Shown here: piece after piece, positions 3,553 through 35,730 of the stretch
How positions within the stretch are numbered: the first letter of the stretch is position 1
How the letters are laid out: each line of letters starts with the position of its first letter
Origin: a virus
Lineage: Duplodnaviria > Heunggongvirae > Uroviricota > Caudoviricetes > Straboviridae
Strand: one strand, 5' to 3'
DNA: 64,000 bases
Virus record (IMG/VR): IMGVR_UViG_3300011728_000017
Position numbers and translations under genes: made by a program
The notes under the pieces: model-generated
Told to the model about the DNA's origin: nothing
The model's database searches: none
The model's input: only the letters and a program-made list of their open reading frames with translations

Positions 3553-3612
3553 AAGCCCTTGACTTCGGTCAGGGGCTTTTGCTATCTTACACACAGGAAA
3601 ACAAAACGGTGG
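3553..3612 (+). promoter_or_regulatory. PeSL-like cassette: stem-loop gcccTTGACttcgGTCAGGGGc with -35 TTGACT inside the stem, -10 TATCTT, then the leader box
   Basis: Same architecture as 9645, 18749 and 59945; followed by a small ORF at 3620. Confidence 0.6.
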
Positions 3613-3619
3613 ATTTATT

Positions 3620-8558: not shown

Positions 8559-9620
8559 ATGAAGTACAAATTTGATAAAGCTGTCGTGATTGGCAGATTC
8601 CAACCTTTCCATAATGGTCATGCGAAGATGATCAGCGAAGCGCTGAAAGAATCCGAAAAGGTCTATATCCTGATCGGTTCCTCTAATGCATACCCTAATG
8701 TGATTAACCCGCTTACCGCCGCCGAACGTAAAAGAATGATCCTGCGTTGGATTGCGGTTAGCCTTAAATCCCACGAAACCGAACGAATTCAGTTCGCTGA
8801 AATTCCAGATTCGCTGTATAACGACGAAAAATGGAAATCAAATGTTCGCCTGGCGATTGATGAACAGAAAGGGGATCGGGTTGCTATCTATGGATTCTAT
8901 AAAGATAGCGATTCCTACTGGCTTAAAGCTTTCGGATGGGAACACCGCGCAGTATACCCTGTTCTGGGTAAAAAAGGCGGGTGTATCAATGCGACTGATC
9001 TTAGAAAGATTATTTTCGCACATAAAAACGGATGGGATAACGCTATCTCTGATTATGTTCCGCAAACCACTGTAGATTTCATTGATATCTGGATGCGGTC
9101 GGATAACTTCTGGCGTATCGAACATGAATCGCGGAAGTGGGAAAGCGAGTTAGAAAAATTCATGGGATATCCATACCCGGAAGCGTTGAACTGCTGTACG
9201 GCTGACAGTGTTGTGGTCTGTAATAACCATATTTTGCTGATCCGTCGTAAGTATGCCCCTGGTCAGGATGCTCTTGCTCTGCCCGGTGGACACAAAAACG
9301 CTAATGAAACGTTCCTGGACTGTGCGATTCGTGAACTGTTGGAAGAAGTGCGAATTAAAGTACCTGAAAAGGTTATTCGTGGTTCTATCCGCAATTCTAT
9401 GCTGTTCGATCATCCCCGTCGGTCTGCGTACTTCTCAAAACCGACTGTAGCGCAGTATATCAAGCTCGAACCAAACCCGGACGGTAGCCTACCCCGAATC
9501 ATGGGAGGCGCTGACGATGCGGCTGATGCGTTCTGGATGCCACTCCATGATGCTATCCGCAATCAAAACCAGTTCTTTGATGATCATTTCCAGATCATTA
9601 CTGCATTTACTGGTATCTGA
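8559..9620 (+). CDS. natV: Bifunctional nicotinamide-mononucleotide adenylyltransferase / Nudix ADP-ribose pyrophosphatase (NatV-like)
   Basis: N-terminal VIGRFQPFHNGH (HxGH NMNAT motif) and ISW-like region; C-terminal Nudix box GGHKNANETFLDCAIRELLEEV; RBS ggag upstream of ATG 8559. Confidence 0.85.
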   Translation: MKYKFDKAVVIGRFQPFHNGHAKMISEALKESEKVYILIGSSNAYPNVINPLTAAERKRMILRWIAVSLKSHETERIQFAEIPDSLYNDEKWKSNVRLAIDEQKGDRVAIYGFYKDSDSYWLKAFGWEHRAVYPVLGKKGGCINATDLRKIIFAHKNGWDNAISDYVPQTTVDFIDIWMRSDNFWRIEHESRKWESELEKFMGYPYPEALNCCTADSVVVCNNHILLIRRKYAPGQDALALPGGHKNANETFLDCAIRELLEEVRIKVPEKVIRGSIRNSMLFDHPRRSAYFSKPTVAQYIKLEPNPDGSLPRIMGGADDAADAFWMPLHDAIRNQNQFFDDHFQIITAFTGI

Positions 9621-9644: not shown

Positions 9645-9700
9645 AAAGCCCTTGACGAAAGTCAGGGGCTTTTGTTATTTTACCCGCATGGAAACGAACC
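9645..9700 (+). promoter_or_regulatory. PeSL-like cassette (stem-loop aagcccTTGACGaaagtcaggggctt, -10 TTATTT, GGAAACGAACC leader)
   Basis: Same architecture as the other cassettes. Confidence 0.6.
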
Positions 9701-9709
9701 GGATTGAAC

Positions 9710-10006
9710 ATGGATCCCAATCAAAAATTCCCTTATACACTCGTTAAACGTCCGTTATGGGCTGGCGGAAATCCTGTTTCACTTTGGCAGGTAATAGACG
9801 CTAATGAAGCTGTATTCGCGGATAAAGAAATATACGCAGTAGAATTAATCGATCTTGAAAACAGTATTATCGTTCTCGAAGATATTAAAACCAAAAAGAA
9901 ATATTCGTTGACTTCAAATGATGATTCCCGTAAATTCAACGTGTACTGGAAATCAAATAACGAATTCGAAAAGGAAACTGATAATGTTAATCCCATACTT
10001 TACTAA
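9710..10006 (+). CDS. Hypothetical protein
   Basis: ATG 9710 (MDPNQKF...); the ORF track starts on TTG at 9704. Confidence 0.5.
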   Translation: MDPNQKFPYTLVKRPLWAGGNPVSLWQVIDANEAVFADKEIYAVELIDLENSIIVLEDIKTKKKYSLTSNDDSRKFNVYWKSNNEFEKETDNVNPILY

Positions 10007-18748: not shown

Positions 18749-18805
18749 AAGCCCCTTGACGAAAGTCTGGGGCTTTTGCTATATTACACACATGGAAACG
18801 AAATG
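18749..18805 (+). promoter_or_regulatory. PeSL-like cassette (aagccccTTGACGaaagtctggggctt, -10 TATATT, ACACACATGGAAACGAAATG leader)
   Basis: Archetypal copy. Confidence 0.6.
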
Positions 18806-19042
18806 ATGAACGGGGAACTGAAAATGAAAGCAAAAATGATGAAATTCGCAAAAGACTGGAACAACGGCGCGGTAATCGGTAACAGCTACATCATCGTTGA
18901 TATCAACTGCGTTGCTCTGGAAGGTGCGAATGTTCTCGAAGTTCCTCGTTATGAAATGGTTGAGGCCGCAGAACGGGCTAAAGAGTTAAACGGCTATGTC
19001 TTCCACATCATCGACGCAGTAAACAACGCTCTGGGGAAATAA
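18803..19042 (+). CDS. Hypothetical protein
   Basis: ATG 18803 (MMNGELK) directly after the leader box. Confidence 0.5.
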   Translation: MMNGELKMKAKMMKFAKDWNNGAVIGNSYIIVDINCVALEGANVLEVPRYEMVEAAERAKELNGYVFHIIDAVNNALGK

Positions 19043-25948: not shown

Positions 25949-27028
25949 ATGTCCAGAGTTATCAATCGGATTACATCGATTAAAATGTTTCCAACCTATG
26001 AACATTATACAGGGAATTCATATACTGAACTTCTCCCGGCGCTGGTTTCATTCAGTGAGAAAACAACAATCAACGGTTCTTCTGAAACCCTGATGCAGAT
26101 CTATGACGACCAGTTGTTATATACGTTAGCAAAGAATCCAATCATTCAGGTTTCGTTCCAGTACAATGAGACATTAGAACAGCATTACTACGGGCTGCTG
26201 TACTCGAACGTCGATACCGATGAAATGAACCGTTCTGTGTTGCGCCTGAACCTTTCTCCGGTGCATACGGTGTTCAGGCGTAAGTTTGCCCGGTCGTTCA
26301 GTAATAACGCCGCAGACACGATTACAGAGTGTATGACAGCACTATATGACAACATGAAGAAGATCATGCCTAAGCTTGATGCGTCGAACGTGCGTATTCC
26401 TCCATCATGCCTTAGTGGATATTATAAAGACGTATTCAACTTCATCCGGGATAACGGACAATGCGTGGAGTCGTCGGACTTCTGTTATCTGTGGGAAGAT
26501 GGTTCCGGGATCTACCTGAAAAGCCATACCGAGATCCTTGCACAGCAACCACTCAAAGGATATAAGTTCAACGCGGATAACCCGTTTATAGGCGATACAA
26601 TCGCGTTTACCAAAGCGGAATATATCACGTATAAAGACAACACATCGTTGCTTGCCGATTCCAGTTTTTTCAGTTTTTCAATGACTGATAAGAAACTATA
26701 TGGTGATATTCTGGCTAATACAGATCTGGAAAACTCATGGATCGTGATGAACCGGAACGCGGTATATGATACAAACTTTCAGAACCCGGATAAATCTGGA
26801 GTACCTTTCCAGGCTGCTAAATGTCTTGCTCTTTCGAGTTATGAAAAGCGGATTAAGTTTGATATCAATCAGGGCAGGATGGATGTAAAGGTAGGGGCAT
26901 TGATCGAGATACACGGGGATCAGTATTCAGGAAAATACATGATTGTTGAATGTACGAGGGATGTGTCTAAAGATTTCCACCTGCAAACAATTGAATGCGT
27001 ACAGGTGGCGGAATTGGTTGCGGCTTAG
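25949..27028 (+). CDS. 27: Baseplate hub subunit gp27
   Basis: MFPTYEHYTGNSYTELL...LMQIYDDQ...IIQVSFQ resembles T4 gp27 LFDSYDAWSNNRFVEL...MLQFYDSK...IIQISVAN; it is divergent from gp28 here. Confidence 0.7.
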   Translation: MSRVINRITSIKMFPTYEHYTGNSYTELLPALVSFSEKTTINGSSETLMQIYDDQLLYTLAKNPIIQVSFQYNETLEQHYYGLLYSNVDTDEMNRSVLRLNLSPVHTVFRRKFARSFSNNAADTITECMTALYDNMKKIMPKLDASNVRIPPSCLSGYYKDVFNFIRDNGQCVESSDFCYLWEDGSGIYLKSHTEILAQQPLKGYKFNADNPFIGDTIAFTKAEYITYKDNTSLLADSSFFSFSMTDKKLYGDILANTDLENSWIVMNRNAVYDTNFQNPDKSGVPFQAAKCLALSSYEKRIKFDINQGRMDVKVGALIEIHGDQYSGKYMIVECTRDVSKDFHLQTIECVQVAELVAA

Positions 27029-27396
27029 GCCGTCTCTTCCTGATAGCCCATGAACAAATCAAATACGTTATGATTTGGCTTTCTACGGGCTTTCAGGATG
27101 TTTTCGTAGTTCTCGCGGGGCATTTCCACCATGAAACACTTCTGACGTGCTGTAGCGCTTTCTACGAGCTTAAACAGGTCATCTTCTGTGTAGTCTTTAT
27201 CTTTTTCGAGTTCGACGATTACACATTGCCACATTTCAGGATCCGCAGTTCGCTGAATCTGGATCAGGTTGGCATTTTTCATGCCCAGATTATGCGCCAG
27301 CATTTCGTGAACGAATTCCATATCTTCCGATTCATAACGGATCTCATGGCCTTCCCAGCGAATCAAACGGATAGTTTTACTTAATTCTTTTCTCAT
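27025..27396 (-). CDS. Hypothetical protein
   Basis: 123-aa ORF, coupled to the upstream gene. Confidence 0.45.
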   Translation of the reverse strand: MRKELSKTIRLIRWEGHEIRYESEDMEFVHEMLAHNLGMKNANLIQIQRTADPEMWQCVIVELEKDKDYTEDDLFKLVESATARQKCFMVEMPRENYENILKARRKPNHNVFDLFMGYQEETA

Positions 27397-27857
27397 TCTT
27401 TGATCTCAATATCTGGGTTATCGCAGCACTTACCAACGTAAACACAACGCCCACAATTACGACACCTGATTTCCGGGAATAAATTAGCTGATGTTCTTTG
27501 TGCCATTACCGATTCGATAAATTTACGCGCAGTAGAAACAGCTTCATTTACTTCGGCTTCGATATACATCGGTTCAAAGCTACCCATCATATCAATTTCG
27601 AAAAGAATGATTTCTTCTTTGAACCTGTTTTCGCCTTTTTCCGGTTCTGGAGTTGGGAACAGTAAAGTAGACGGGATCGCGAAAACTGCTTTACCCCAAT
27701 CACACCCCGGCACTTCCTTAACTTCGGTGATCACTACACCTGCTTTGAGATATTCAAATTCTTTATCACGAATAAACCCATAATGATATTCGTACACACA
27801 TTTAGTAGCAAACGCGGGTTTAAGTCGGTAGGTCTTTCCAATACAAATCATTTCCAT
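27393..27857 (-). CDS. Hypothetical protein with C-terminal Cys cluster (CRNCGRCVYVGKCC)
   Basis: 154-aa ORF. Confidence 0.5.
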   Translation of the reverse strand: MEMICIGKTYRLKPAFATKCVYEYHYGFIRDKEFEYLKAGVVITEVKEVPGCDWGKAVFAIPSTLLFPTPEPEKGENRFKEEIILFEIDMMGSFEPMYIEAEVNEAVSTARKFIESVMAQRTSANLFPEIRCRNCGRCVYVGKCCDNPDIEIKE

Positions 27858-27870
27858 TATACCTTTAGTA

Positions 27871-28077
27871 TTAATTCAATTCCCCGACAAGTTCCATCGC
27901 CGCCTCAAGGGATTCAATTTCAAATTCAATATTGTCCATATGAAGAACTTTAATATCACCGAAGTAAACAGCAACTAAATTGCCTTCTGCATCGCGGATA
28001 ATGTAGGCACCATCAACTTCTTTAGCAATATGTTTCACTTTCATGTTCATGATGTGTTCCTTATTTGATAGGGGCAA
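27871..28077 (-). CDS. Hypothetical small protein
   Basis: 68-aa ORF. Confidence 0.4.
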   Translation of the reverse strand: MPLSNKEHIMNMKVKHIAKEVDGAYIIRDAEGNLVAVYFGDIKVLHMDNIEFEIESLEAAMELVGELN

Positions 28078-28106
28078 TATACCAGAATAAATTATTGAAT
28101 CAAGTT

Positions 28107-28343
28107 TTAAGCGTTAACTTCTTTCAGCCATTTGTTGTATCTGCATAACTGATTCTGCGCGGAATAATAACTTTCTTCACGGAAAGAAGAAGCACAGTAA
28201 ACCACGACCGGGATAGAAATACCGACTTCTGGTTTGTCGTCGAAAACGAACACCTGAATGTGTTCACGTTTTACGCGCGGTGACTTCATACCAGATACCA
28301 GCGCCAGGAAATCAGCCTTTTTCATCGCATGTGCCATTGACAT
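28107..28343 (-). CDS. Hypothetical protein (start at ATG 28343 just downstream of a PeSL cassette)
   Basis: ORF 28107..28571 is trimmed to the internal ATG (MSMAHAMKK), which has RBS ggag and sits downstream of the promoter at 28360..28420. Confidence 0.5.
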   Translation of the reverse strand: MSMAHAMKKADFLALVSGMKSPRVKREHIQVFVFDDKPEVGISIPVVVYCASSFREESYYSAQNQLCRYNKWLKEVNA

Positions 28344-28359
28344 AATTCGTTCTCCATTC

Positions 28360-28420
28360 AGTGTTTCGTTTCGATGTGTGTAAGATAACAAAAAGCCTCC
28401 TGCGATGCAAGAGGCTTGAT
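28360..28420 (-). promoter_or_regulatory. PeSL-like cassette on the - strand (stem-loop aagcctcTTGCATcgcaggaggctt, -10 TATCTT, ACACACATCGAAACGAAAC leader)
   Basis: A 54-bp segment is identical to 29773..29828. Confidence 0.6.
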
Positions 28421-28446
28421 GAAGAAAAATCGATATTTTATTAATT

Positions 28447-28755
28447 TTATTCAGCGTGGTCAAAAACCCATTTACGACGTTTTTCGTTAAGGTGGGCTTC
28501 GTTAGATGATGTTTCATCGATGTATGATCGATCCCCTTCTTTCGGGCGGTTGAAAGGAATATCCATATCAAGTCCAGCTTTCCTGAATTGGTCTTCCATT
28601 TCTTCGAGCAGTATTGAATCGATATTATGTTTTATGCACCACATCAAAAGACTGGAACATAGTCCGTTAAAACGGGAAAAGCTAGGATGCGGAAGCGCAC
28701 CATTTTTAAGCCATAAAGCATAATCCCAGTAAAAGAGTTTTAAATTTTCGCTCAT
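28447..28755 (-). CDS. Paralog A of the small-protein family ending RRKWVFDHAE
   Basis: MSENLKLFYWDYALWLKNG...EAHLNEKRRKWVFDHAE; about 60% identical to 28784..29092. Confidence 0.6.
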   Translation of the reverse strand: MSENLKLFYWDYALWLKNGALPHPSFSRFNGLCSSLLMWCIKHNIDSILLEEMEDQFRKAGLDMDIPFNRPKEGDRSYIDETSSNEAHLNEKRRKWVFDHAE

Positions 28756-28783
28756 TGTGAATTCCTAAATGTTTCAAAAATGC

Positions 28784-29092
28784 TTATTCAGCGTGGTCAA
28801 AAACCCATTTACGGCGTTTTTCGTTAAGGTGGGCTTCGTCGGATGATGTTTCTTCGGTGTATCTACGTTCCTCTGTAAATAAACTATTGAAAGGGATATC
28901 CTCATCAAGACCAGCATTTATAAACTGTTCAATCATTTCGCCAAAAATTGTTTCAGCCACGTCGTTCACCACACACCATCTTAGTAAACTGGTACATAAC
29001 CCAAAGCCACGACTGAAACAAAGATGTTCTTCGGCACCAGTTTTCAACCATAAAGCATACTCCCGGTAAAAGAGTTTTAAATCTTCGCTCAT
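28784..29092 (-). CDS. Paralog B of the small-protein family ending RRKWVFDHAE
   Basis: MSEDLKLFYREYALWLKTG...EAHLNEKRRKWVFDHAE. Confidence 0.6.
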   Translation of the reverse strand: MSEDLKLFYREYALWLKTGAEEHLCFSRGFGLCTSLLRWCVVNDVAETIFGEMIEQFINAGLDEDIPFNSLFTEERRYTEETSSDEAHLNEKRRKWVFDHAE

Positions 29093-29115
29093 TATAAATC
29101 CCTCACAAATATGTT

Positions 29116-29415
29116 TTAGAACTGCAAAGCTTTTTTATCATTGATTGCTGTTTTAAGCTTCTCGCGGTTAACTGTTACAGTTTCACAATCAGCACCGAAA
29201 CCAGTTTTCCAGCTAACCAGGACTTCGCCTGATGATTTAACCTGGAATTCTTTTTTGCCGAACAGAGCAACACCGAACAACTTACGCTGGTCATCAGCAC
29301 TCATACGAACCCACTGGTTTTCAATATTCAGCAACGCCATTACTTCGAAGAAGTTAATGAAGTCGTAATTACCTTTGTGGTCGATCCATGCTGGTACAGT
29401 GAATAAGTTTTTCAT
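29116..29415 (-). CDS. Hypothetical protein
   Basis: 99-aa ORF downstream of the PeSL at 29428..29482. Confidence 0.5.
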   Translation of the reverse strand: MKNLFTVPAWIDHKGNYDFINFFEVMALLNIENQWVRMSADDQRKLFGVALFGKKEFQVKSSGEVLVSWKTGFGADCETVTVNREKLKTAINDKKALQF

Positions 29416-29427
29416 GGCAATTCCTCC

Positions 29428-29482
29428 GGTTCGCTTGATGTGTGTATCCTATCAAAACCCCTTGCACTTGGCAAGGGGTTCA
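29428..29482 (-). promoter_or_regulatory. PeSL-like cassette (stem-loop aaccccTTGCCAagtgcaaggggtt, -10 GATAGGATA region, ACACACATCAAGCGAACCGG leader)
   Basis: Variant copy. Confidence 0.5.
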
Positions 29483-29487
29483 ATCAA

Positions 29488-29754
29488 TTATTCTTCTTTG
29501 AAGCAAAGTTCTACTTCAACGTTAACTAAGCAGATTGCGATATCCCATGAATCGGCAACCGGATCGTATACTGCTTTATCTTCATCTGCGACCGGGAGAG
29601 CAACAACCCAGCCATCAACAACACGTTTAACCCGAAGTCTTTCAAATAATGCAACCGCGTTGCCCAGTGATTCACCACCGTTAGCCAGCTTTTCAAAACG
29701 CGCTACATCTACCAGGTTGATTACTTTACCTTCCAGATCTTTATTGACGTTCAT
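29488..29754 (-). CDS. Hypothetical protein (start ATG 29754, MNVNKDLEG)
   Basis: ORF 29488..29802 is trimmed to the ATG with RBS aaggaac, which lies after the PeSL leader. Confidence 0.5.
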   Translation of the reverse strand: MNVNKDLEGKVINLVDVARFEKLANGGESLGNAVALFERLRVKRVVDGWVVALPVADEDKAVYDPVADSWDIAICLVNVEVELCFKEE

Positions 29755-29769
29755 AGTGATGTTCCTTTT

Positions 29770-29830
29770 TGCTGTTTCGTTTCGATGTGTGTAAGATAAC
29801 AAAAAGCCTCCTGCGATGCAAGAGGCTGTT
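29770..29830 (-). promoter_or_regulatory. PeSL-like cassette, a near-identical copy of 28360..28420
   Basis: 54-bp perfect direct repeat. Confidence 0.6.
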
Positions 29831-29846
29831 TTAGCAAAAAGTGCTA

Positions 29847-30197
29847 TTATTCTGCGTGGTCAAAAACCCATTGGCGACGTTTTTTGTTCAGATATGATGT
29901 GTGTCGCATAACTTCGGAAGAATAAGAATTCATACGATCATTTCTGTCAGCACTATTGAATGGGAAATCCTCACTTAGTCCGGCGTTAACAAATTGGCGG
30001 CTCATTTCGTAGGTTATAGTTGAGATTTTTTTATTTTCGCTCAACCACCTAATCAGGCATATACAAAGCCCGTCAAATCTCCTGAATGAAGTATGTTCAG
30101 GAGCGCCGTCATTAAGCCAGTTTGCATATTCCCGATAAAATTGTTTCAGTTCTTCACTCATTTCCATAATATATTCACCTTTCAAATTATAGTTCAA
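29847..30197 (-). CDS. Paralog C of the small-protein family (ends RRQWVFDHAE)
   Basis: ...LKQFYREYANWLNDGAPEHTSF...SYLNKKRRQWVFDHAE. Confidence 0.55.
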   Translation of the reverse strand: MNYNLKGEYIMEMSEELKQFYREYANWLNDGAPEHTSFRRFDGLCICLIRWLSENKKISTITYEMSRQFVNAGLSEDFPFNSADRNDRMNSYSSEVMRHTSYLNKKRRQWVFDHAE

Positions 30198-30223
30198 TGA
30201 AATGCCCCCGAAGGGGCATTTTC

Positions 30224-30478
30224 TTATCTCATTCTTAATTTAGTGACAGTTACCAGGTTTTTCGCGTGGGCTTTACAGGCTTCCGGGAGGCTGCTTTTCT
30301 CTGCGCTGTGCTGACGGAGCAACCACTTGAACATCCCTTCCAGGCTACCGTTGCTGTAGTGGACAACGTTTTCAACAATCAGGGTGATATCGTCGCCGTC
30401 TTTAACCAGCACCATACGACCGTTCATTACATGAGAGATAATCTGGTCGTTGTGGAAGTCATTGATTGTTCTAGCCAT
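30224..30478 (-). CDS. Hypothetical protein (start ATG 30478, MARTINDF)
   Basis: ORF 30224..30559 is trimmed to the ATG with RBS aggaacg after the PeSL leader. Confidence 0.5.
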   Translation of the reverse strand: MARTINDFHNDQIISHVMNGRMVLVKDGDDITLIVENVVHYSNGSLEGMFKWLLRQHSAEKSSLPEACKAHAKNLVTVTKLRMR

Positions 30479-30489
30479 TTTCGCGTTCC

Positions 30490-30550
30490 TTTCTCGTTTC
30501 GTCTTGATGTGTGTAATATAACAAAACCCCTCACCATAGGCAAGGGGTTT
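30490..30550 (-). promoter_or_regulatory. PeSL-like cassette (stem-loop aaccccTTGCCTatggtgaggggtt, -10 TATATT, ACACACATCAAGACGAAACGAG leader)
   Basis: Lies immediately downstream of the ligase gene. Confidence 0.55.
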
Positions 30551-30568
30551 CTTTAACAAAAAGTGCTA

Positions 30569-32164
30569 TTAAAACAGATCAGCAAAAACATCATGGATAT
30601 CATTGGGTTGTGACTTATCCCAACGAATCTTTTTGATGATTGGAAGGAAGAAACTGTATTCCGGTTCACCGGGTTTGCGGGTTTTTGAAGTCTGCAAACC
30701 ATCAACTTCCATTTCGACGATTGCCCCGATGTACATATCTTTGCTTCCCATGATGAATTCACGATCTAACCACCCGCGTTCAGTCAGCGGAATATATTCA
30801 CGGGTAACGCCATCATTAGCATAACGGTAATCAGTATCAGTCAGGCCGGATCCGGTATTCGTCCTTGCTTCCCCTGACAAATCCTCTACCACAAATCCGC
30901 CGATTTTATTAGGATCTTTGGTATGCGGATAAACATCAACGATTCGCAGATCGATTGGTGTTTTATTTTTTAGTTTAACCTGGTCGGCTACACGCGAATC
31001 TTTCCAGAAGAAATGCGTATTTTTCAGAATAGAACCTTCTTTACCTTCATTCCGGTAATCGTTGTAATCCTTTTTGGCTTCCGCAAAATTGTACACCAGT
31101 TTAGAAGGAATCAACTGAATATTCGTTACGCCGATTGCAGCAAGCGCACCTTCCAGAATACTAAATCGGTCGCAGTATGGAGCGGTAGAAACTTTATCGA
31201 CATAATACTGATCGTACTGAATAAGATCCCATACCTGGAATACAATATTTTTCTGTTCTTCTTCGGAAATAGTTCCTTTCAGGGATTTGTTTACAATCCC
31301 ATTACCTTCTTCACGTTTCGCCTCTGCTTTATCTTCTTCCGGCGTCGAAGGACGGATGATACCGGAGCCAGAATCAGCCAGTTCAGGAAGTACATCATCA
31401 TCCATAAAGCTATCAAGGCTAAACGGGATAGTTTTGATATCTGTGAATAAAGCAATGGCTTCTTCATCGGTCATGCGTCCTGTTGACATCAGTCGTTGGT
31501 CAGATTCAACTGCCACAACAGGCCCGTTGATATAAATTAGTTCACCATCCAGCACATAATCACAGCCCAGATAATCACGCAGTTTACGCAGCGATGTATC
31601 AAGATCGGTAAGTCCGGTATATTCATTACCTGCGCGGGATACTTTGCGAATGTAGCTTTCTACCAGATCCGCCATACAACGCGCCCCATCAGCCTTTAAT
31701 TGAGAGTAAGCCGGGTAAACGATACGTTTTAAGGCTTTCTCACTAAACGCCGTAGCGAGGCATTGAGGCTGTTCTGGGATAAGGTTTTTCCATACCCGAT
31801 TTGGTATGGTTGTACCCGCACCGCATTCCAGATCGCGGTTAATGATGCGGCGCAATACTTCCCGATCACGTTCATTAACCAGTGACGCAACTTTGCGCAA
31901 ATGATCGCGAGCATCATTACCCGTTAACTGACGAGTAGAAAGCTTGTTGATTATTTGCGATATTGCCCATGAAAGGGAATGAGTTTCATCGGGATATTGA
32001 TCAAACTCAGTAGGAAACTTTTTAACATGGAACATAATCTGTTTATTGTAAGTGATACAAAAGATATGTTTCAGTAAATCATTATCCTTGTGCTTATGCA
32101 GAATCGATTCTTTTTGTTTTGTTTTGAGTGTTGATGCTAGTTCATCAAGAATTGCTAAAATCAT
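30569..32164 (-). CDS. 30: ATP-dependent DNA ligase gp30
   Basis: Adenylation motif I KADGARC (T4 ligase has KADGAR); 531 aa against 487 for T4. Confidence 0.88.
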   Translation of the reverse strand: MILAILDELASTLKTKQKESILHKHKDNDLLKHIFCITYNKQIMFHVKKFPTEFDQYPDETHSLSWAISQIINKLSTRQLTGNDARDHLRKVASLVNERDREVLRRIINRDLECGAGTTIPNRVWKNLIPEQPQCLATAFSEKALKRIVYPAYSQLKADGARCMADLVESYIRKVSRAGNEYTGLTDLDTSLRKLRDYLGCDYVLDGELIYINGPVVAVESDQRLMSTGRMTDEEAIALFTDIKTIPFSLDSFMDDDVLPELADSGSGIIRPSTPEEDKAEAKREEGNGIVNKSLKGTISEEEQKNIVFQVWDLIQYDQYYVDKVSTAPYCDRFSILEGALAAIGVTNIQLIPSKLVYNFAEAKKDYNDYRNEGKEGSILKNTHFFWKDSRVADQVKLKNKTPIDLRIVDVYPHTKDPNKIGGFVVEDLSGEARTNTGSGLTDTDYRYANDGVTREYIPLTERGWLDREFIMGSKDMYIGAIVEMEVDGLQTSKTRKPGEPEYSFFLPIIKKIRWDKSQPNDIHDVFADLF

Positions 32165-32759
32165 TTAATTTCTCTTCAATATCAAACCATGTTTTTACCA
32201 CATGATGCGGGGCTTTAGGTTTATCACGTTCACCACGGATCATATGGAATAAAGGCAACTGACTCATGACATTATGACAATCATCTAAATTCACAGCGAG
32301 ATCATCAATAAAGCAAACAAGACGATCCCCGTATTTCGCTTTTGCGTCAAGATAGCGATGTGTCTTTGATTCATTATGATTAACAACACAGACTTCTTTA
32401 AACGCAGAAGGGAAAAGCGTATTCAGGTTAGCAATACGGTTTAAACTTGCGGCGGGAGTCGTACCCAGGGCCGTTACAGCCACGAAATCATATTTTATTT
32501 TCAGACGGTTGATTACCTGCAATGCATCGTCATACGCGCTTAGATAGCGAATAAACGAGCTATTGTTATATTCTTCCATCAGGATTTTGGCTAATTGATC
32601 GTTACAGCCGAAGATATCAGTCAGGGATCGGAATCGTTCATCAGAAATCATTTCAAGCGCAACATCAGTAGGCATATTATGCTTCGAAAGGAAGAAAGCA
32701 AGCCCGGACTGCCATTTAATCGAAACACCATCAATATCGGTAAGGATTACAGGTTTCAA
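32145..32759 (-). CDS. HAD-superfamily phosphatase, possibly 5'(3')-deoxyribonucleotidase-like
   Basis: N-terminal ILTDIDGVSIKW (DxDG[VT] HAD motif I). Confidence 0.5.
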   Translation of the reverse strand: MKPVILTDIDGVSIKWQSGLAFFLSKHNMPTDVALEMISDERFRSLTDIFGCNDQLAKILMEEYNNSSFIRYLSAYDDALQVINRLKIKYDFVAVTALGTTPAASLNRIANLNTLFPSAFKEVCVVNHNESKTHRYLDAKAKYGDRLVCFIDDLAVNLDDCHNVMSQLPLFHMIRGERDKPKAPHHVVKTWFDIEEKLNDFSNS

Positions 32760-32977
32760 GATAAAACCTCATACCGATCAAAGAACAGTTTACTTTTAAA
32801 CGCATTCAATTCTGCGAGGAAATACTCACGTTCAAATTCACGATAATACTCAAACTCAATACACAGCATATCATCGTTAGTTACGCCAATACCCACGATA
32901 TCCTGATGATATCTTTTAGCGCGTTCCAGAACAAAAGGATCGAGATCCGAACAATCGAAATAAATTACATAACTCAT
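32756..32977 (-). CDS. Hypothetical small protein
   Basis: 73 aa, coupled. Confidence 0.4.
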   Translation of the reverse strand: MSYVIYFDCSDLDPFVLERAKRYHQDIVGIGVTNDDMLCIEFEYYREFEREYFLAELNAFKSKLFFDRYEVLS

Positions 32978-33186
32978 ATATACTCAATATTATCTAAATT
33001 AATCTCTTCTGATGCATTTTCCATCATCATTACAAAACAGTCTTCAACGGATTCATCTTCGGCACGTACAACGACAACCATATAAGGCCCATGTGCTTCA
33101 ATTTCCACAATAGTCATGTGACATTGTTTGATTCTTTCCAGCACAATAGGATGTACTGCGAGAATATCAAAAGTGAGTCTGATCAT
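32974..33186 (-). CDS. Hypothetical small protein
   Basis: 70 aa, coupled. Confidence 0.4.
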   Translation of the reverse strand: MIRLTFDILAVHPIVLERIKQCHMTIVEIEAHGPYMVVVVRAEDESVEDCFVMMMENASEEINLDNIEYI

Positions 33187-33449
33187 TACTTACCTTTATA
33201 CATATAACATGCTGCGAACGAAGGATTATCGATATCAAGTTTTTCAAAAACAATATCACCGGATGCGCATTTTCTGACGTAGCTCTCAATAACATTCATG
33301 CTACTCGCGCCAATTGTGACGTAATAAACGCCTGCTTTATAAATAACACCCATAATCAGGGTTGAACTTAATGTACCCTGCGCATAAAGCAACGCAAGAG
33401 GGTTAACGTTGCCTTTAAAAAGAAAAGCGCACTCTACTCTTTCACTCAT
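33186..33449 (-). CDS. Hypothetical small protein
   Basis: 87 aa, coupled. Confidence 0.4.
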   Translation of the reverse strand: MSERVECAFLFKGNVNPLALLYAQGTLSSTLIMGVIYKAGVYYVTIGASSMNVIESYVRKCASGDIVFEKLDIDNPSFAACYMYKGK

Positions 33450-33952
33450 AATAATTCCCTTAACCGGGTTAACTGACCAACAAATTCACGTTCAGTCAGT
33501 ACCGTTTCATTAGTTTTATTTTTGCCCATTGAATGTGTCAATGTTGCCTTTCCAGTCGCTTTTAATGCACGTCTGAAACCGTCATTAAGGATTATCGCAT
33601 TATACGCATTCGTAATCAAATTTTGATACGCTTCCGAATCGCGATGAACGGGAACACCTTTCCAGTAAAGGGTTTGATCCCTCCACCAGTTTTTCTTTTT
33701 ACCTTTGAACTTCGCGGCCTTGCCTACCAGAGTACAGACATACGCCTGCATATCAGGATTGCTAAATTTGAGGCTTTGTAAAAAGCCCTCCATCGATGCG
33801 CATTGCACCCCGTCGAACGTAAACGGATGCGGGGAGAAGTTGCTTAATGCATTTGAAGGGTAAGAGTTACCGGATCCGATGTCCATTATGACAACATCCC
33901 CATTACCATTAACCCGCCTGCGACACATCCCAGGAGGAAATAGGCGATACAC
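33446..33952 (-). CDS. NADAR (YbiA-like) domain protein
   Basis: LSNFSPHPFTFDGVQCASMEGFLQSLKF (YbiA FSNWYPAPFELDGVTY..SEQY..AQK), KATGKATLTH (TGDATLVE) and a C-terminal ...QLTRLRELL. Confidence 0.7.
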   Translation of the reverse strand: MYRLFPPGMCRRRVNGNGDVVIMDIGSGNSYPSNALSNFSPHPFTFDGVQCASMEGFLQSLKFSNPDMQAYVCTLVGKAAKFKGKKKNWWRDQTLYWKGVPVHRDSEAYQNLITNAYNAIILNDGFRRALKATGKATLTHSMGKNKTNETVLTEREFVGQLTRLRELL

Positions 33953-35679: not shown

Positions 35680-35730
35680 TTTCGTTTCTGTGTGGGTACA
35701 GTAACAATAAACCAATTTCCTGTCAATAAG
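35680..35730 (-). promoter_or_regulatory. Early-type promoter (-35 TTGACA, ACACAGAAACGAAATG leader) on the - strand
   Basis: Shares the leader box with the PeSL cassettes; the stem-loop terminator is separate, at 35756..35792. Confidence 0.45.

Follow-up and report, generated by a model that had tools for sequence, protein, structure and literature searches.

Two identical 55-bp segments found in the genome of an RB43-group T4-type phage are, as a whole, best explained as two copies of one PeSL-type cassette, which share a common origin and form repeats able to recombine; we give this reading a probability of roughly 0.8. The window, that is the whole stretch of 64,000 nucleotides that was analysed, contains the segments as direct repeats at 28362-28416 and 29773-29827, with a start-to-start spacing of 1411 bp. 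A previous sequence-only reading had reported a perfect direct repeat of 54 bp, and this 54-mer indeed occurs exactly twice (28363-28416 and 29774-29827 in plus-strand coordinates); one more shared T on the left extends it to 55 bp, and the positions originally given were wrong by 1 to 3 nt. None of 100 dinucleotide-preserving shuffled controls gave any 54-mer match, and the 55-bp repeat is the longest exact direct repeat of the window, the next being a 30-mer within paralogs A and B. Identity ends abruptly on both sides of the 55-mer, with 12 of the 21 adjoining nucleotides matching on the high-coordinate side, and no target-site duplications (a transposon-like signature) are visible in the flanks.

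The two copies, called P2 and P1, bracket the module already described from the sequence, namely paralogs A and B plus two small genes (Y and X), all on the minus strand. The genes of the module and its surroundings are:

30569..32164, minus strand: ATP-dependent DNA ligase (gp30-like, PF01068), conserved left anchor of the hyperplastic region
30224..30478, minus strand: gene g, 84 aa, phrog_16902
30204..30217, minus strand: hairpin GCCCCTTCGGGGGC after gene g
29847..30167, minus strand: paralog C, 106 aa, phrog_2510, upstream flank of the module
29488..29754, minus strand: gene X, 88 aa, phrog_7207, first gene of the bracketed module
29116..29415, minus strand: gene Y, 99 aa, without family match, sporadic distribution
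28784..29092, minus strand: paralog B, 102 aa, phrog_2510
28447..28755, minus strand: paralog A, 102 aa, phrog_2510, 63% aa identity to B
28107..28343, minus strand: gene Z, 78 aa, phrog_14613, downstream flank, predicted to be expressed from P1

All 8 small proteins of the locus lack a Pfam match, and their PHROG matches are only to families of unknown function. Homologs of X are found in Yersinia phage JC221, Margaery, CfP1, RB43, Lw1, KP15, RB16 and KP27. Those of Y are limited to Klebsiella phage R4_1 and Enterobacter phage phiEap-3 (84-86% aa), with distant matches in Pseudomonas phages HRDY3 and Lu11; JC221_043, the JC221 gene after X, was compared with Y and is not homologous. Paralogs A and B have near-identical ends, with exact repeats of 30 and 25 nt, and a diverged middle.

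The repeat is real and did not arise from the assembly of this record. The sequence comes from a JGI metagenome contig, and 55 bp exceeds common k-mer sizes, so that reads might have been collapsed or misjoined at such a short repeat, creating the repeat itself or a false segment order. The Logan graph does break there: a Logan contig of 1416 nt equals window positions 28387-29802 exactly, the length expected for a k=31 unitig stopping 30 nt inside each copy. However, an ENA metagenome scaffold from another sample (L002, 98.5% identical overall), assembled independently, has both 55-bp copies and unchanged gene order. Moreover, all four junctions have unique flanks running into intact ORFs with Shine-Dalgarno sites, and if C-P-Z were joined instead, with X...A as a piece of its own, X-Y-B-A would have no place in the genome. 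We consider an artefact extremely improbable.

Each copy can be divided into the following predicted elements:

29773..29827, minus strand: P2, upstream copy (in transcription sense) of the composite terminator/early-promoter core, between paralog C and gene X (exact match)
29805..29827, minus strand: P2 hairpin AGCCTCTTGC-ATC-GCAGGAGGCT, then TTTTT; intrinsic-terminator-like, 10-bp stem (terminator scan and RNA fold)
29816-29821, minus strand: P2 -35, TTGCAT, inside the hairpin (read from the sequence)
29793..29801, minus strand: P2 extended -10, TGtTATCTT, 17 nt past the -35 (read from the sequence)
29773..29792, minus strand: P2 leader ACACACATCGAAACGAAACA (initial transcribed region), conserved, 20 nt; the repeat ends here
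29762-29767, minus strand: Shine-Dalgarno AAGGAA beyond the P2 repeat end, then the ATG of X
28362..28416, minus strand: P1, downstream copy, between paralog A and gene Z (exact match)
28393..28417, minus strand: P1 hairpin, 11 bp, plus U-run (terminator scan, RNA fold)
28405-28410, minus strand: P1 -35, TTGCAT (read from the sequence)
28382..28390, minus strand: P1 extended -10, TGtTATCTT (read from the sequence)
28362..28381, minus strand: P1 conserved leader; the repeat ends here
28350-28355, minus strand: Shine-Dalgarno GGAGAA beyond the P1 repeat end, then the ATG of Z

On the minus strand, the order in both copies is a -35 in the 5' arm of the hairpin, a 17-nt spacer, the extended -10 and the 20-nt leader. 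The terminator scan found in both a stem of 10-11 bp with 6 G-C pairs and a 3-nt loop, immediately followed by TTTTT; the P1 stem reaches 11 bp because the flanking A-T pairs too. Hairpin energies are -16 to -17 kcal/mol, and the context z-scores relative to shuffles are -3.6 and -4.9, the latter for the 85-nt P2 context. Both copies read TTGCAT-17-TATCTT with TG at -15/-14. As these hexamers are weak (consensus matches of 3/6 for the -35 and 4/6 for the -10, 7/12 together), both promoters fell below the 9/12 cut-off of our promoter scan and are absent from its list, which P3 and P' (see below) entered; the strength of P1 and P2 as promoters is accordingly presumed from the extended -10 and by analogy. 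The spacers that precede the cores begin at a TAA stop and are AT-rich, with 30 nt and 83% A+T between A and P1, and 19 nt and 68% A+T between C and P2. An Rfam scan of 27000-31000 returned a lone match, rnk_pseudo, which at 24.5 bits against a gathering score of 55 is sub-threshold and due to chance. From these features, P1 and P2 are predicted to be active both as promoters and as terminators.

The identification of the repeats as PeSLs, already proposed in the sequence-only reading, was supported, by sequence criteria, in a comparison with the published definitions (PMC2839356, PMC4122927). P1 and P2 combine a terminator-type stem-loop, a sigma-70-like early promoter with 17-nt spacing, an AT-rich upstream region and a Shine-Dalgarno with start codon; they are intergenic, lie upstream of small genes of unknown function in a hyperplastic region, and indels between relatives end in or next to the cassettes. 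The same architecture is present at 7 hairpin-bearing sites of the window, on both strands and each time just upstream of an ATG, as well as in JC221, Margaery, CfP1, RB43, RB16, KP15, Lw1 and R4_1. Two diverged cassettes belong to the locus itself:

29426..29481, minus strand: P', diverged PeSL inside the module (hairpin 29456-29480, TTGCCA-17-TAGGAT); predicted to end the X unit and start the Y-B-A unit
30495..30551, minus strand: P3, PeSL after the DNA ligase gene (hairpin 30524-30550, TTGCCT-17-TATATT)

A counterpart of P' is located after X in CfP1 and RB43. An upstream element, TAATAGCACTTTTTG, is common to P2 and P3 and missing from P1, a mosaic pattern, whereas nearly every early promoter in this phage group has the leader in conserved form. 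The other cassette copies had been described as diverged, and indeed the other hairpin-bearing copies of the window are identical to the core at 31-41 of 55 positions in an ungapped comparison, against 55/55 for the P1-P2 pair. An exact scan of IMG/VR for the hairpin-promoter core gave 0 matches. In JC221, a 44-bp exact PeSL pair lies 9.5 kb apart at unrelated loci; therefore, perfect PeSL pairs are not unique to this locus.

We also looked at covariation in 15 hairpins of the family. In a hand-built alignment, in which a 9-bp stem was registered from each hairpin's own fold and which is thus biased towards pairing, 98.5% of the cells were paired, 3 of the 9 stem pairs had compensatory double changes, and the covariation score was reached by none of 500 shuffles. 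Unguided MAFFT and RNAalifold on the hairpins yielded no consensus structure, because loop and stem lengths differ. With this bias of the alignment, the compensatory changes suggest that the family hairpin is under selection.

This architecture is consistent with a stop-and-restart model of transcription. The G+C-rich hairpin with its U-run would stop transcription coming from the upstream gene unit, and RNA polymerase with host sigma-70 would restart at the promoter whose -35 is in the 5' arm of the same hairpin. The resulting mRNA would begin with the conserved leader of 20 nt and continue through a Shine-Dalgarno into the next small early gene, which is X for P2 and Z for P1. Such cassettes would therefore cut the region into short, self-contained early transcription units, possibly g-C from P3, X from P2, Y-B-A from P'; and Z onwards from P1.

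The locus lies between the DNA ligase and a baseplate hub gene, an interval whose gene content differs among JC221, Margaery, CfP1 and R4_1 and which is, by this comparison, hyperplastic. In the window the order is ligase-P3-g-C-P2-X-P'-Y-B-A-P1-Z. At least 18 listed Pseudotevenvirus records have Z immediately downstream of X; therefore, Y-B-A and the second cassette appear to be extra in the window. Margaery-type genomes have X, one promoter and then Z, and ligase-P-X where the window has ligase-P3-g-C-P2-X. Their promoter before Z, at the position of P1, shares the -10 and the leader and has no terminator-type hairpin upstream of the -10; the JC221 downstream promoter corresponding to P1 likewise has no such hairpin. 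The sole copy of the cassette at the JC221 locus is the PeSL upstream of the X homolog, the positional counterpart of P2, which is 51/55 identical and has the same hairpin. Furthermore, the g hairpin of JC221 is directly followed by a B-like paralog, and it is there that C-P2-X-P'-Y is inserted in the window. The start of B and the 18 nt upstream of it correspond to the JC221 g-to-par1 junction, and the synteny breakpoint is no more than about one base away from the 3' end of the g hairpin.

The units that vary among the known relatives are Y-B-A (P' to P1) and g-C (P3 to P2), and X is kept at this position in the examined relatives with this neighbourhood (Klebsiella phage R4_1 was not part of this check). 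The modular shuffling previously suggested for this locus is consequently supported as far as cassette-ended indels occur there, but the proposed P2-P1 module is not the unit that varies. L002 and the window have 4 differences in the 3.0-kb block holding the repeat, with flanks 2-4% diverged and two gene-sized indels at 32978-33465 that are not flanked by PeSLs. Scans anchored on proteins, with X in IMG/VR and with Z and X in JGI metagenomes, returned known, more distant phages or nothing, and thus no intermediates. A search for graded relatives with the ligase gave the source contig at 100% and its ENA twin, after which identity fell to 81% on a contig of 1.8 kb, so the lineage is sparsely represented; an exact look-up of the ligase had no match.

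Because of the PeSL anatomy, the divergence of the other copies and the cassette-ended indels in relatives, a common origin of P1 and P2, by copying or conversion, is the only reasonable reading of these sequences. The direction and mechanism of copying we infer from the comparison with relatives. Both copies would descend from the cassette preceding X in relatives, and the second one would have arisen later than the divergence from the JC221 lineage and earlier than that from L002, when recombination changed the placement of the paralog genes with respect to X; the arrangement P-X-P'-Y-B-A-P of the window is a circular permutation of a JC221-type paralogs-P-X. Alternatively, within the same overall reading, the hairpin part of an older promoter of Z may have been overwritten by a short conversion patch. 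Whether P1 or P2 was the source appears ambiguous, because the bases flanking the core in P1 fit the JC221 copy better than those of P2. Single-event reconstructions were considered (tandem duplication with deletions, integration of a circle at the core, or insertion of a donor segment), and none was preferable with the genomes compared.

Orthologous PeSLs can be nearly identical: the X-associated cassette has 4/55 differences, and the PeSL at window position 3583 is 66/66 identical to its JC221 ortholog, in genomes about 83% identical. Cassettes therefore evolve slowly, and zero differences in 55 limit the age of the copy only to less than about 0.75 of the window-JC221 divergence (5% level). 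Of the initial suggestion of a recent duplication or ongoing gene conversion, copying or conversion agrees well with 55/55 identity in this pair alone, but "recent" is weakly constrained. Such near-identity of orthologs would also fit an old duplication held identical by purifying selection, the cassette being too constrained to change. We find this improbable, as 14-24 of 55 positions are different in other functional copies of this genome, so that selection does not demand this sequence, and the hairpin varies freely via compensatory changes. Moreover, JC221 has one copy only at the locus, making the duplication younger than that split.

Concerted evolution alone could also explain the identity: diverged PeSLs would have been present at both sites and a short gene-conversion patch would have homogenised them with no rearrangement. 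Such a patch would come from heteroduplex repair during recombination-dependent phage replication, and the identity would then be silent on how the module was assembled. In line with this, the tract of identity covers no more than 55 bp and its ends are sharp, the right one coinciding with the end of the leader conserved across copies; the near-identical ends of A and B suggest that conversion is active here; and the exact pair of JC221 joins loci that are otherwise unrelated. On the contrary, the left end of the tract is the hairpin base, beyond which 12/21 matches in an AT-rich spacer make no good anchor. In addition, the Margaery-type and JC221 downstream promoters have no such hairpin, leaving possibly nothing homologous to convert, and the gene order is really rearranged with respect to both JC221 and Margaery. 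We regard conversion without rearrangement as possible but rather unlikely.

The position of the joints points to a further scenario, in which the hairpin itself directed the copying or joining of the core, through cleavage of a cruciform or stem-loop or through template switching at the stem base, and ordinary homologous recombination was not involved. This idea arises because two independent novel joints at the locus coincide with a hairpin base, exactly or to about one nucleotide: the left edge of the 55-bp identity is the first stem base, with no homology beyond, and the window/JC221 synteny break is at the 3' end of the g hairpin. Arbiol et al. speculated that PeSL hairpins may be recombination sites (PMC2839356). 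We hold the scenario to be unlikely; if it were true, PeSL hairpins would be recombination sites themselves and the conserved leader a second, homologous exchange arm.

Returning to the two copies as homologous repeats, 55 bp would be long enough for phage homologous recombination to delete, duplicate or circularise the 1411-bp X-P'-Y-B-A segment. The homology requirement in T4 is under 50 bp, as cited by Arbiol et al., who demonstrated mini-circles produced by crossovers between flanking PeSLs, between the -10 and the ATG (PMC2839356). We infer that recombination between P1 and P2 may be ongoing. Deletion or duplication variants of the module had been proposed as something to look for in relatives: none was found between the identical copies, indels ending instead at other cassette pairs. 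Likewise, no deletion, duplication or circle variant between P1 and P2 was found in assemblies, the sole close relative, L002, having the parental structure. L002 is uninformative on the stability of the repeat because its whole 3-kb block is nearly identical to the window, and junction variants are unreadable from Logan unitigs because the repeat is longer than the k-mer of 31.

We compared the locus with known systems, as described in the accessible parts of each source. As in RB49/phi1 (Arbiol et al. 2010, PMC2839356), the PeSLs are intergenic composite cassettes in hyperplastic regions, with an AT-rich upstream, a G/C-rich stem-loop of terminator type that overlaps or adjoins a sigma-70-type promoter (17-nt spacing), and a Shine-Dalgarno and ATG of a small gene at the 3' side, and they flank genes of the presence/absence type. 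Also in common are direct cassette repeats bracketing 1-4 ORFs, a topology that here is known from sequence alone and that in RB49/phi1 gave mini-circles of 0.7-1.5 kb experimentally; PeSL activity was shown there with lacZ reporters (PMC2839356). The anatomy of P1 and P2 also agrees with the definition of Arbiol et al., whose stem-loop classes either cover the -35 or sit between the two boxes (PMC2839356). Unlike RB49/phi1, the lineage here is RB43/Pseudotevenvirus-like, the hexamers of the identical copies are weak (TTGCAT, TATCTT) and not near-consensus, and nearly all copies have the -35 within the hairpin's 5' arm. A strongly conserved leader of 20-30 nt (ACACACATCGAAACGAAACAG...) and a conserved post-stop element, TAATAGCACTTTTTGYTAAA, also characterise this group, and neither is mentioned in the accessible descriptions of the RB49/phi1 PeSLs (PMC2839356).

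The PeSLs/PmSLs of T4/PST and KVP40/nt-1 (Comeau et al. 2014, PMC4122927) are similarly lineage-specific variants, clustered in hyperplastic regions and adjoining insertions, deletions and replacements between close relatives. Their stem-loop, unlike here, is upstream of the promoter, with consensus sequences TTTACW/TAYWAT and TTGYVH/TAWWAT, and no perfect 55-bp pair is highlighted for them in the accessible text (PMC4122927). The predicted early promoters of RB43, of the same phage group, are located upstream of novel ORFs (Nolan et al. 2006, PMC1524935), and their -35, which has a G at -33 and either G or C at -36 (C/G-TTG-A/C...), fits CTTGCA and CTTGAC here; as far as that study is accessible, promoters and terminators are described separately, with neither a hairpin-embedded composite nor a role in rearrangement (PMC1524935). 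In T4, patches of a few tens of bp recombine to give deletions and duplications (Singer et al. 1982, Mosig et al. 1998, cited in PMC2839356). T4 deletion endpoints are often at GGGC/GCCC inverted-repeat motifs, resembling the hairpin-base breakpoints here, but those cases are laboratory deletion mutants, whereas our evidence is comparative only (cited in PMC2839356).

In conclusion, the cassette is a further example of the known PeSL type linked to gene shuffling and no new kind of element, and the locus leaves unchanged the picture of how early transcription is organised and accessory genes are shuffled in T4-type phages. With the phage or a close relative in culture, PeSL-mediated deletion or circle formation could conveniently be measured here by PCR. 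PeSLs, documented until now in RB49/phi1, T4/PST and KVP40/nt-1, are thereby described for the RB43-like (Pseudotevenvirus) branch as well, and the locus provides a clean natural example in which a cassette that is single in the nearest relative is present as two identical copies, together with a circular permutation of the neighbouring genes, a topology that is a prediction of the excision and re-insertion (mini-circle) model.

The 54-mer pointed out by the sequence-only reading occurs exactly twice on the plus strand of the window (28363-28416 and 29774-29827), and one extra common T brings the perfect repeat to 55 bp (P1, 28362-28416, and P2, 29773-29827), with the copies spaced 1411 bp start to start and their identity ending abruptly at both edges. 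This is the longest exact direct repeat of the 64-kb window, the next longest being 30 and 25 nt at the 3' ends of paralog genes A and B, and a match to the 54-mer appeared in none of 100 dinucleotide-preserving shuffles. The window derives from a JGI contig of 175,246 nt; both 55-mers, in the same gene order, are also present in an ENA metagenome scaffold that was assembled independently (L002; 98.5% identity over 5.8 kb). In addition, a Logan contig of 1416 nt (L003, run SRR1749670) matches 28387-29802 exactly and ends 30 nt within each 55-bp copy, one per end; its length, 1356 unique bases plus 30 plus 30, fits a k=31 unitig bounded by the repeat. The repeat is therefore not peculiar to the window's own assembly.

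All genes of the locus are on the minus strand, in the transcription order ligase, P3, g, hairpin, C, P2, X, P', Y, B, A, P1, Z and a 59-aa gene, where P3 and P' are further cassettes.

Genes of the repeat locus, in transcription order
32164-30569, minus, DNA ligase gene, upstream end of this order
30478-30224, minus, gene g, after P3
30217-30204, minus, hairpin between g and paralog C
30167-29847, minus, paralog C, upstream of P2
29754-29488, minus, gene X, after P2
29415-29116, minus, gene Y, after P'
29092-28784, minus, paralog B, between Y and A
28755-28447, minus, paralog A, upstream of P1
28343-28107, minus, gene Z, after P1
28050-27871, minus, 59-aa gene, after Z

None of the eight small proteins around the repeat has a Pfam match, and all have PHROG matches of unknown function except Y, which has no PHROG match. 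Y (29116-29415, minus) is very patchily distributed: among 50,697 phage records, only Klebsiella phage R4_1 and Enterobacter phage phiEap-3 have close homologs (84-86% aa), and two Pseudomonas phages with records of 280-314 kb, Lu11 and HRDY3, give distant matches (35-38%). A, B and C belong to phrog_2510 (about 100 aa, function unknown), which has three copies in the window (28447-28755, 28784-29092 and 29847-30167, minus) and three in Yersinia phage JC221 (9579-9932, 10244-10555 and 10552-10893). The coding ends of these paralogs, N- and C-terminal, are nearly identical in nucleotides and their middles only about 60% identical, with exact repeats in the gene ends (30- and 25-mers in the window, a 42-mer in JC221); this pattern points either to exchange among the paralogs, by conversion or recombination, or to gene ends under unusually strong constraint.

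The minus-strand sequence of the repeat is AGCCTCTTGCATCGCAGGAGGCT TTTTTG T TATCTT ACACACATCGAAACGAAACA. Its first 23 nt form a stable hairpin (10-11 bp stem, 3-nt loop) followed by a T-run, and a terminator scan found both at P1 and P2. TTGCAT occupies the 5' arm and loop, and TATCTT, preceded by TG, lies 17 nt downstream, together a predicted promoter of sigma-70 type whose -10 is extended. With 7/12 consensus matches the hexamers are weak, and the P1 and P2 promoters are absent from the output of a scan with a 9/12 cut-off, which the equivalent promoters of P3 and P' passed. A 20-nt leader closes the repeat, with gene-specific Shine-Dalgarno sites just after. Two papers (PMC2839356; PMC4122927) describe the PeSL as a sigma-70-like early promoter with a stem-loop serving as terminator, placed over the -35, over the -10 or between both. 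They give it AT-rich sequence on the upstream side, a Shine-Dalgarno site plus ATG on the downstream side, and a location in hyperplastic regions, mostly ahead of ORFans. By their anatomy P1 and P2 fit this definition, so that the earlier interpretation of the elements as PeSLs was right. The -35 form of the window (C/G-TTG-...) also agrees with the RB43 early-promoter consensus (PMC1524935). The nearest record is JC221 (83% identical across 77% of a 20-kb query), and the phage is a member of the RB43/Pseudotevenvirus-like group; the repeat is a PeSL of known type in an uncultivated RB43-like phage.

Seven hairpin-bearing sites of the same architecture are present in the window, on both strands, and the architecture of P1 and P2 recurs in JC221, Margaery, CfP1, RB43, RB16, KP15, Lw1 and R4_1.

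Hairpin-bearing cassettes of the window
3583, 9676, 18780, plus, same architecture
28387, 29451, 29798, 30520, minus, same architecture

In 15 distinct family hairpins, pairing across the nine outermost stem pairs reaches 98.5%, and three stem pairs show compensatory double changes (A-U/G-C, C-G/G-C, C-G/U-A). The covariation score was reached by 0 of 500 shuffles, in an alignment registered by hand from each hairpin's own fold, which biases the test towards pairing. An unguided alignment of the family hairpins gave no consensus structure, and Rfam had nothing at the repeat locus.

P1 and P2 are identical at 55/55 positions, against 31-41/55 between their core and the other hairpin-bearing copies of the window, which match one another at 30-46 positions. 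A common origin of P1 and P2 by copying is therefore, on these comparisons, certain in practice. The cassettes evolve slowly, since the JC221 cassette upstream of the X homolog has the same hairpin and 4/55 differences from the core, and the window cassette at 3583 is identical to its JC221 counterpart at 66/66 positions. With 0 differences against 4 since the split, the age of the pair is bounded at less than about 0.75 of the window-JC221 divergence (5% level). Thus, of the proposed recent duplication or conversion, the copying holds while recency is only loosely constrained. JC221 has two exact 44-bp PeSL copies separated by 9.5 kb (L016/L017; record coordinates 33481 and 43030), and another of its AGCCTC-type cassettes, 35 kb away from the X-upstream one, matches that one at 52/66 positions (23553 and 58785); therefore, both long exact identity of cassettes and cassette subfamilies of very high identity at distant loci recur in the group.

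L002 is uninformative on repeat stability because the whole block 28014-31042 is nearly identical to the window (only 4 differing sites in 3.0 kb, with flanks 2-4% diverged). This block takes in the entire variable region and one third of the ligase gene, at its 3' end; beyond it there are 71 differences in 1.9 kb (3.7%; 31043-32977) and, on the other flank (27930-28013), 8 in 84 nt. Its edges fall within the ligase and 59-aa genes, away from PeSLs, and the pattern suggests that lineages recently exchanged this block as a whole by homologous recombination.

Relatives gave a view of how the locus was rearranged. X and Z are adjacent, within about 615 bp, in at least 18 Pseudotevenvirus records among the matches listed, including Margaery, Maroon, Dev_CS701, vB_EcRAM-01 and the Cronobacter leB/leE/leN phages. 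Between X and Z, Margaery retains the left flank of P' (TAATTGA), followed by a single promoter that has no terminator-type hairpin upstream of its -10 and shares -10, leader and Z start with P1; so P'-Y-B-A and the P1 hairpin are extra in the window. On the other side, the order is ligase-PeSL-X in Margaery, ligase-PeSL-g-hairpin/promoter-X in CfP1 and ligase-P3-g-hairpin-C-P2-X in the window. P2 has the post-stop element TAATAGCACTTTTTG in common with P3 and not P1, and its hairpin, promoter and leader in common with P1 and not P3, a mosaic of P3-like and P1-like parts. In JC221, the g-hairpin is followed directly by a B-like paralog, more paralogs, a PeSL and X. The two orders break within about one base of the g-hairpin 3' end, where C-P2-X-P'-Y is interposed in the window; thus the window's P-X-P'-Y-B-A-P is the JC221-type order paralogs-P-X circularly permuted. 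Such an order, with the cassette duplicated at both ends, would be the expected remnant of excision and re-insertion, or of a tandem duplication then trimmed. The genomes compared do not reduce this history to a single event, and the source copy is ambiguous between P1 and P2; in single bases flanking the core P1 is closer to JC221 than P2, and P2 retains the position upstream of X. Two novel joints coincide with a hairpin base to within about one nucleotide. Two gene-sized indels also separate the window from L002 (32978-33182 and about 33446-33465), one a window-only 70-aa ORF (32974-33186, minus) with ATGA-type start/stop overlaps at both joints, the other about 209 nt extra in L002. PeSLs border neither of these indels, so genes are gained and lost here by another route as well.

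Nearly every early promoter of the phage group (also recorded in L001, L005, L006, L007 and L009-L015) has the leader ACACACATCGAAACGAAACAG(A)CAAAAGGAAC, about 20-30 nt long, directly 3' of its -10. The leader is found even where a terminator hairpin is lacking, and in phages that share only about 75% identity. Its conservation exceeds promoter needs; candidate roles are translation, stability or service as the homologous arm for cassette recombination. The post-stop element TAATAGCACTTTTTGYTAAA, in which the stops TAA TAG stand in tandem with a T-run, directly follows unrelated genes upstream of the cassette hairpin; the canonical form is absent from P1. The available descriptions of RB49/phi1 PeSLs mention neither a conserved leader nor a post-stop element, whereas the window's group has both. 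Across its -10 box, the Margaery-type X-Z promoter carries an 11-nt inverted repeat, CGATGTGTGTA...TACACACATCG, and would correspond to a different PeSL subclass (stem-loop over the -10), where the window has the P2-type hairpin.

Leader, post-stop element and inverted repeat
3583-3615, 9676-9710, 18780-18815, plus, leader, window
28362-28381, 29773-29792, 30495-30514, about 35680-35703, minus, leader, window
29835-29849, 30557-30571, minus, post-stop element, window
Three intergenic regions of R4_1 (L007) and about 9380-9400 of JC221 (L001), post-stop element
2680-2757 of Margaery (L005), about 6290-6340 of L015, about 5290-5330 of L010, inverted repeat spanning the -10

Each cassette would stop read-through from the preceding unit and then restart early transcription, giving the putative units P3:g-C, P2:X, P':Y-B-A and P1:Z onwards. 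Arbiol et al. (PMC2839356) cite a homology requirement of under 50 bp for T4-type recombination, and they observed mini-circles of 0.7-1.5 kb whose crossovers fell between the -10 and ATG of flanking PeSLs. As 55-bp direct repeats, P1 and P2 exceed this need, and a P1 x P2 deletion would leave C-P-Z, with X, Y, B and A lost. The proposal of the repeat as a recombination substrate thus stands as a potential, but ongoing recombination is unproven: no P1-P2 structural variant was found in the assembled IMG/VR, JGI metagenome and ENA sequences searched, which included one close relative (L002), and Logan unitigs are unable to reveal one because the 55-bp repeat is longer than k. X is kept at its position in JC221, Margaery, CfP1, RB43, Lw1, KP15, RB16 and KP27 (R4_1, whose ligase-to-hub interval has a different gene set, was left out), and many relatives do without Y, A and B; selection may therefore act against a P1 x P2 deletion, which would explain why natural variation runs via the P'/P1 and P3/P2 pairs instead. 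The least ordinary aspects of the locus are the two joints at hairpin bases and the group's leader and post-stop elements, which are strongly conserved.
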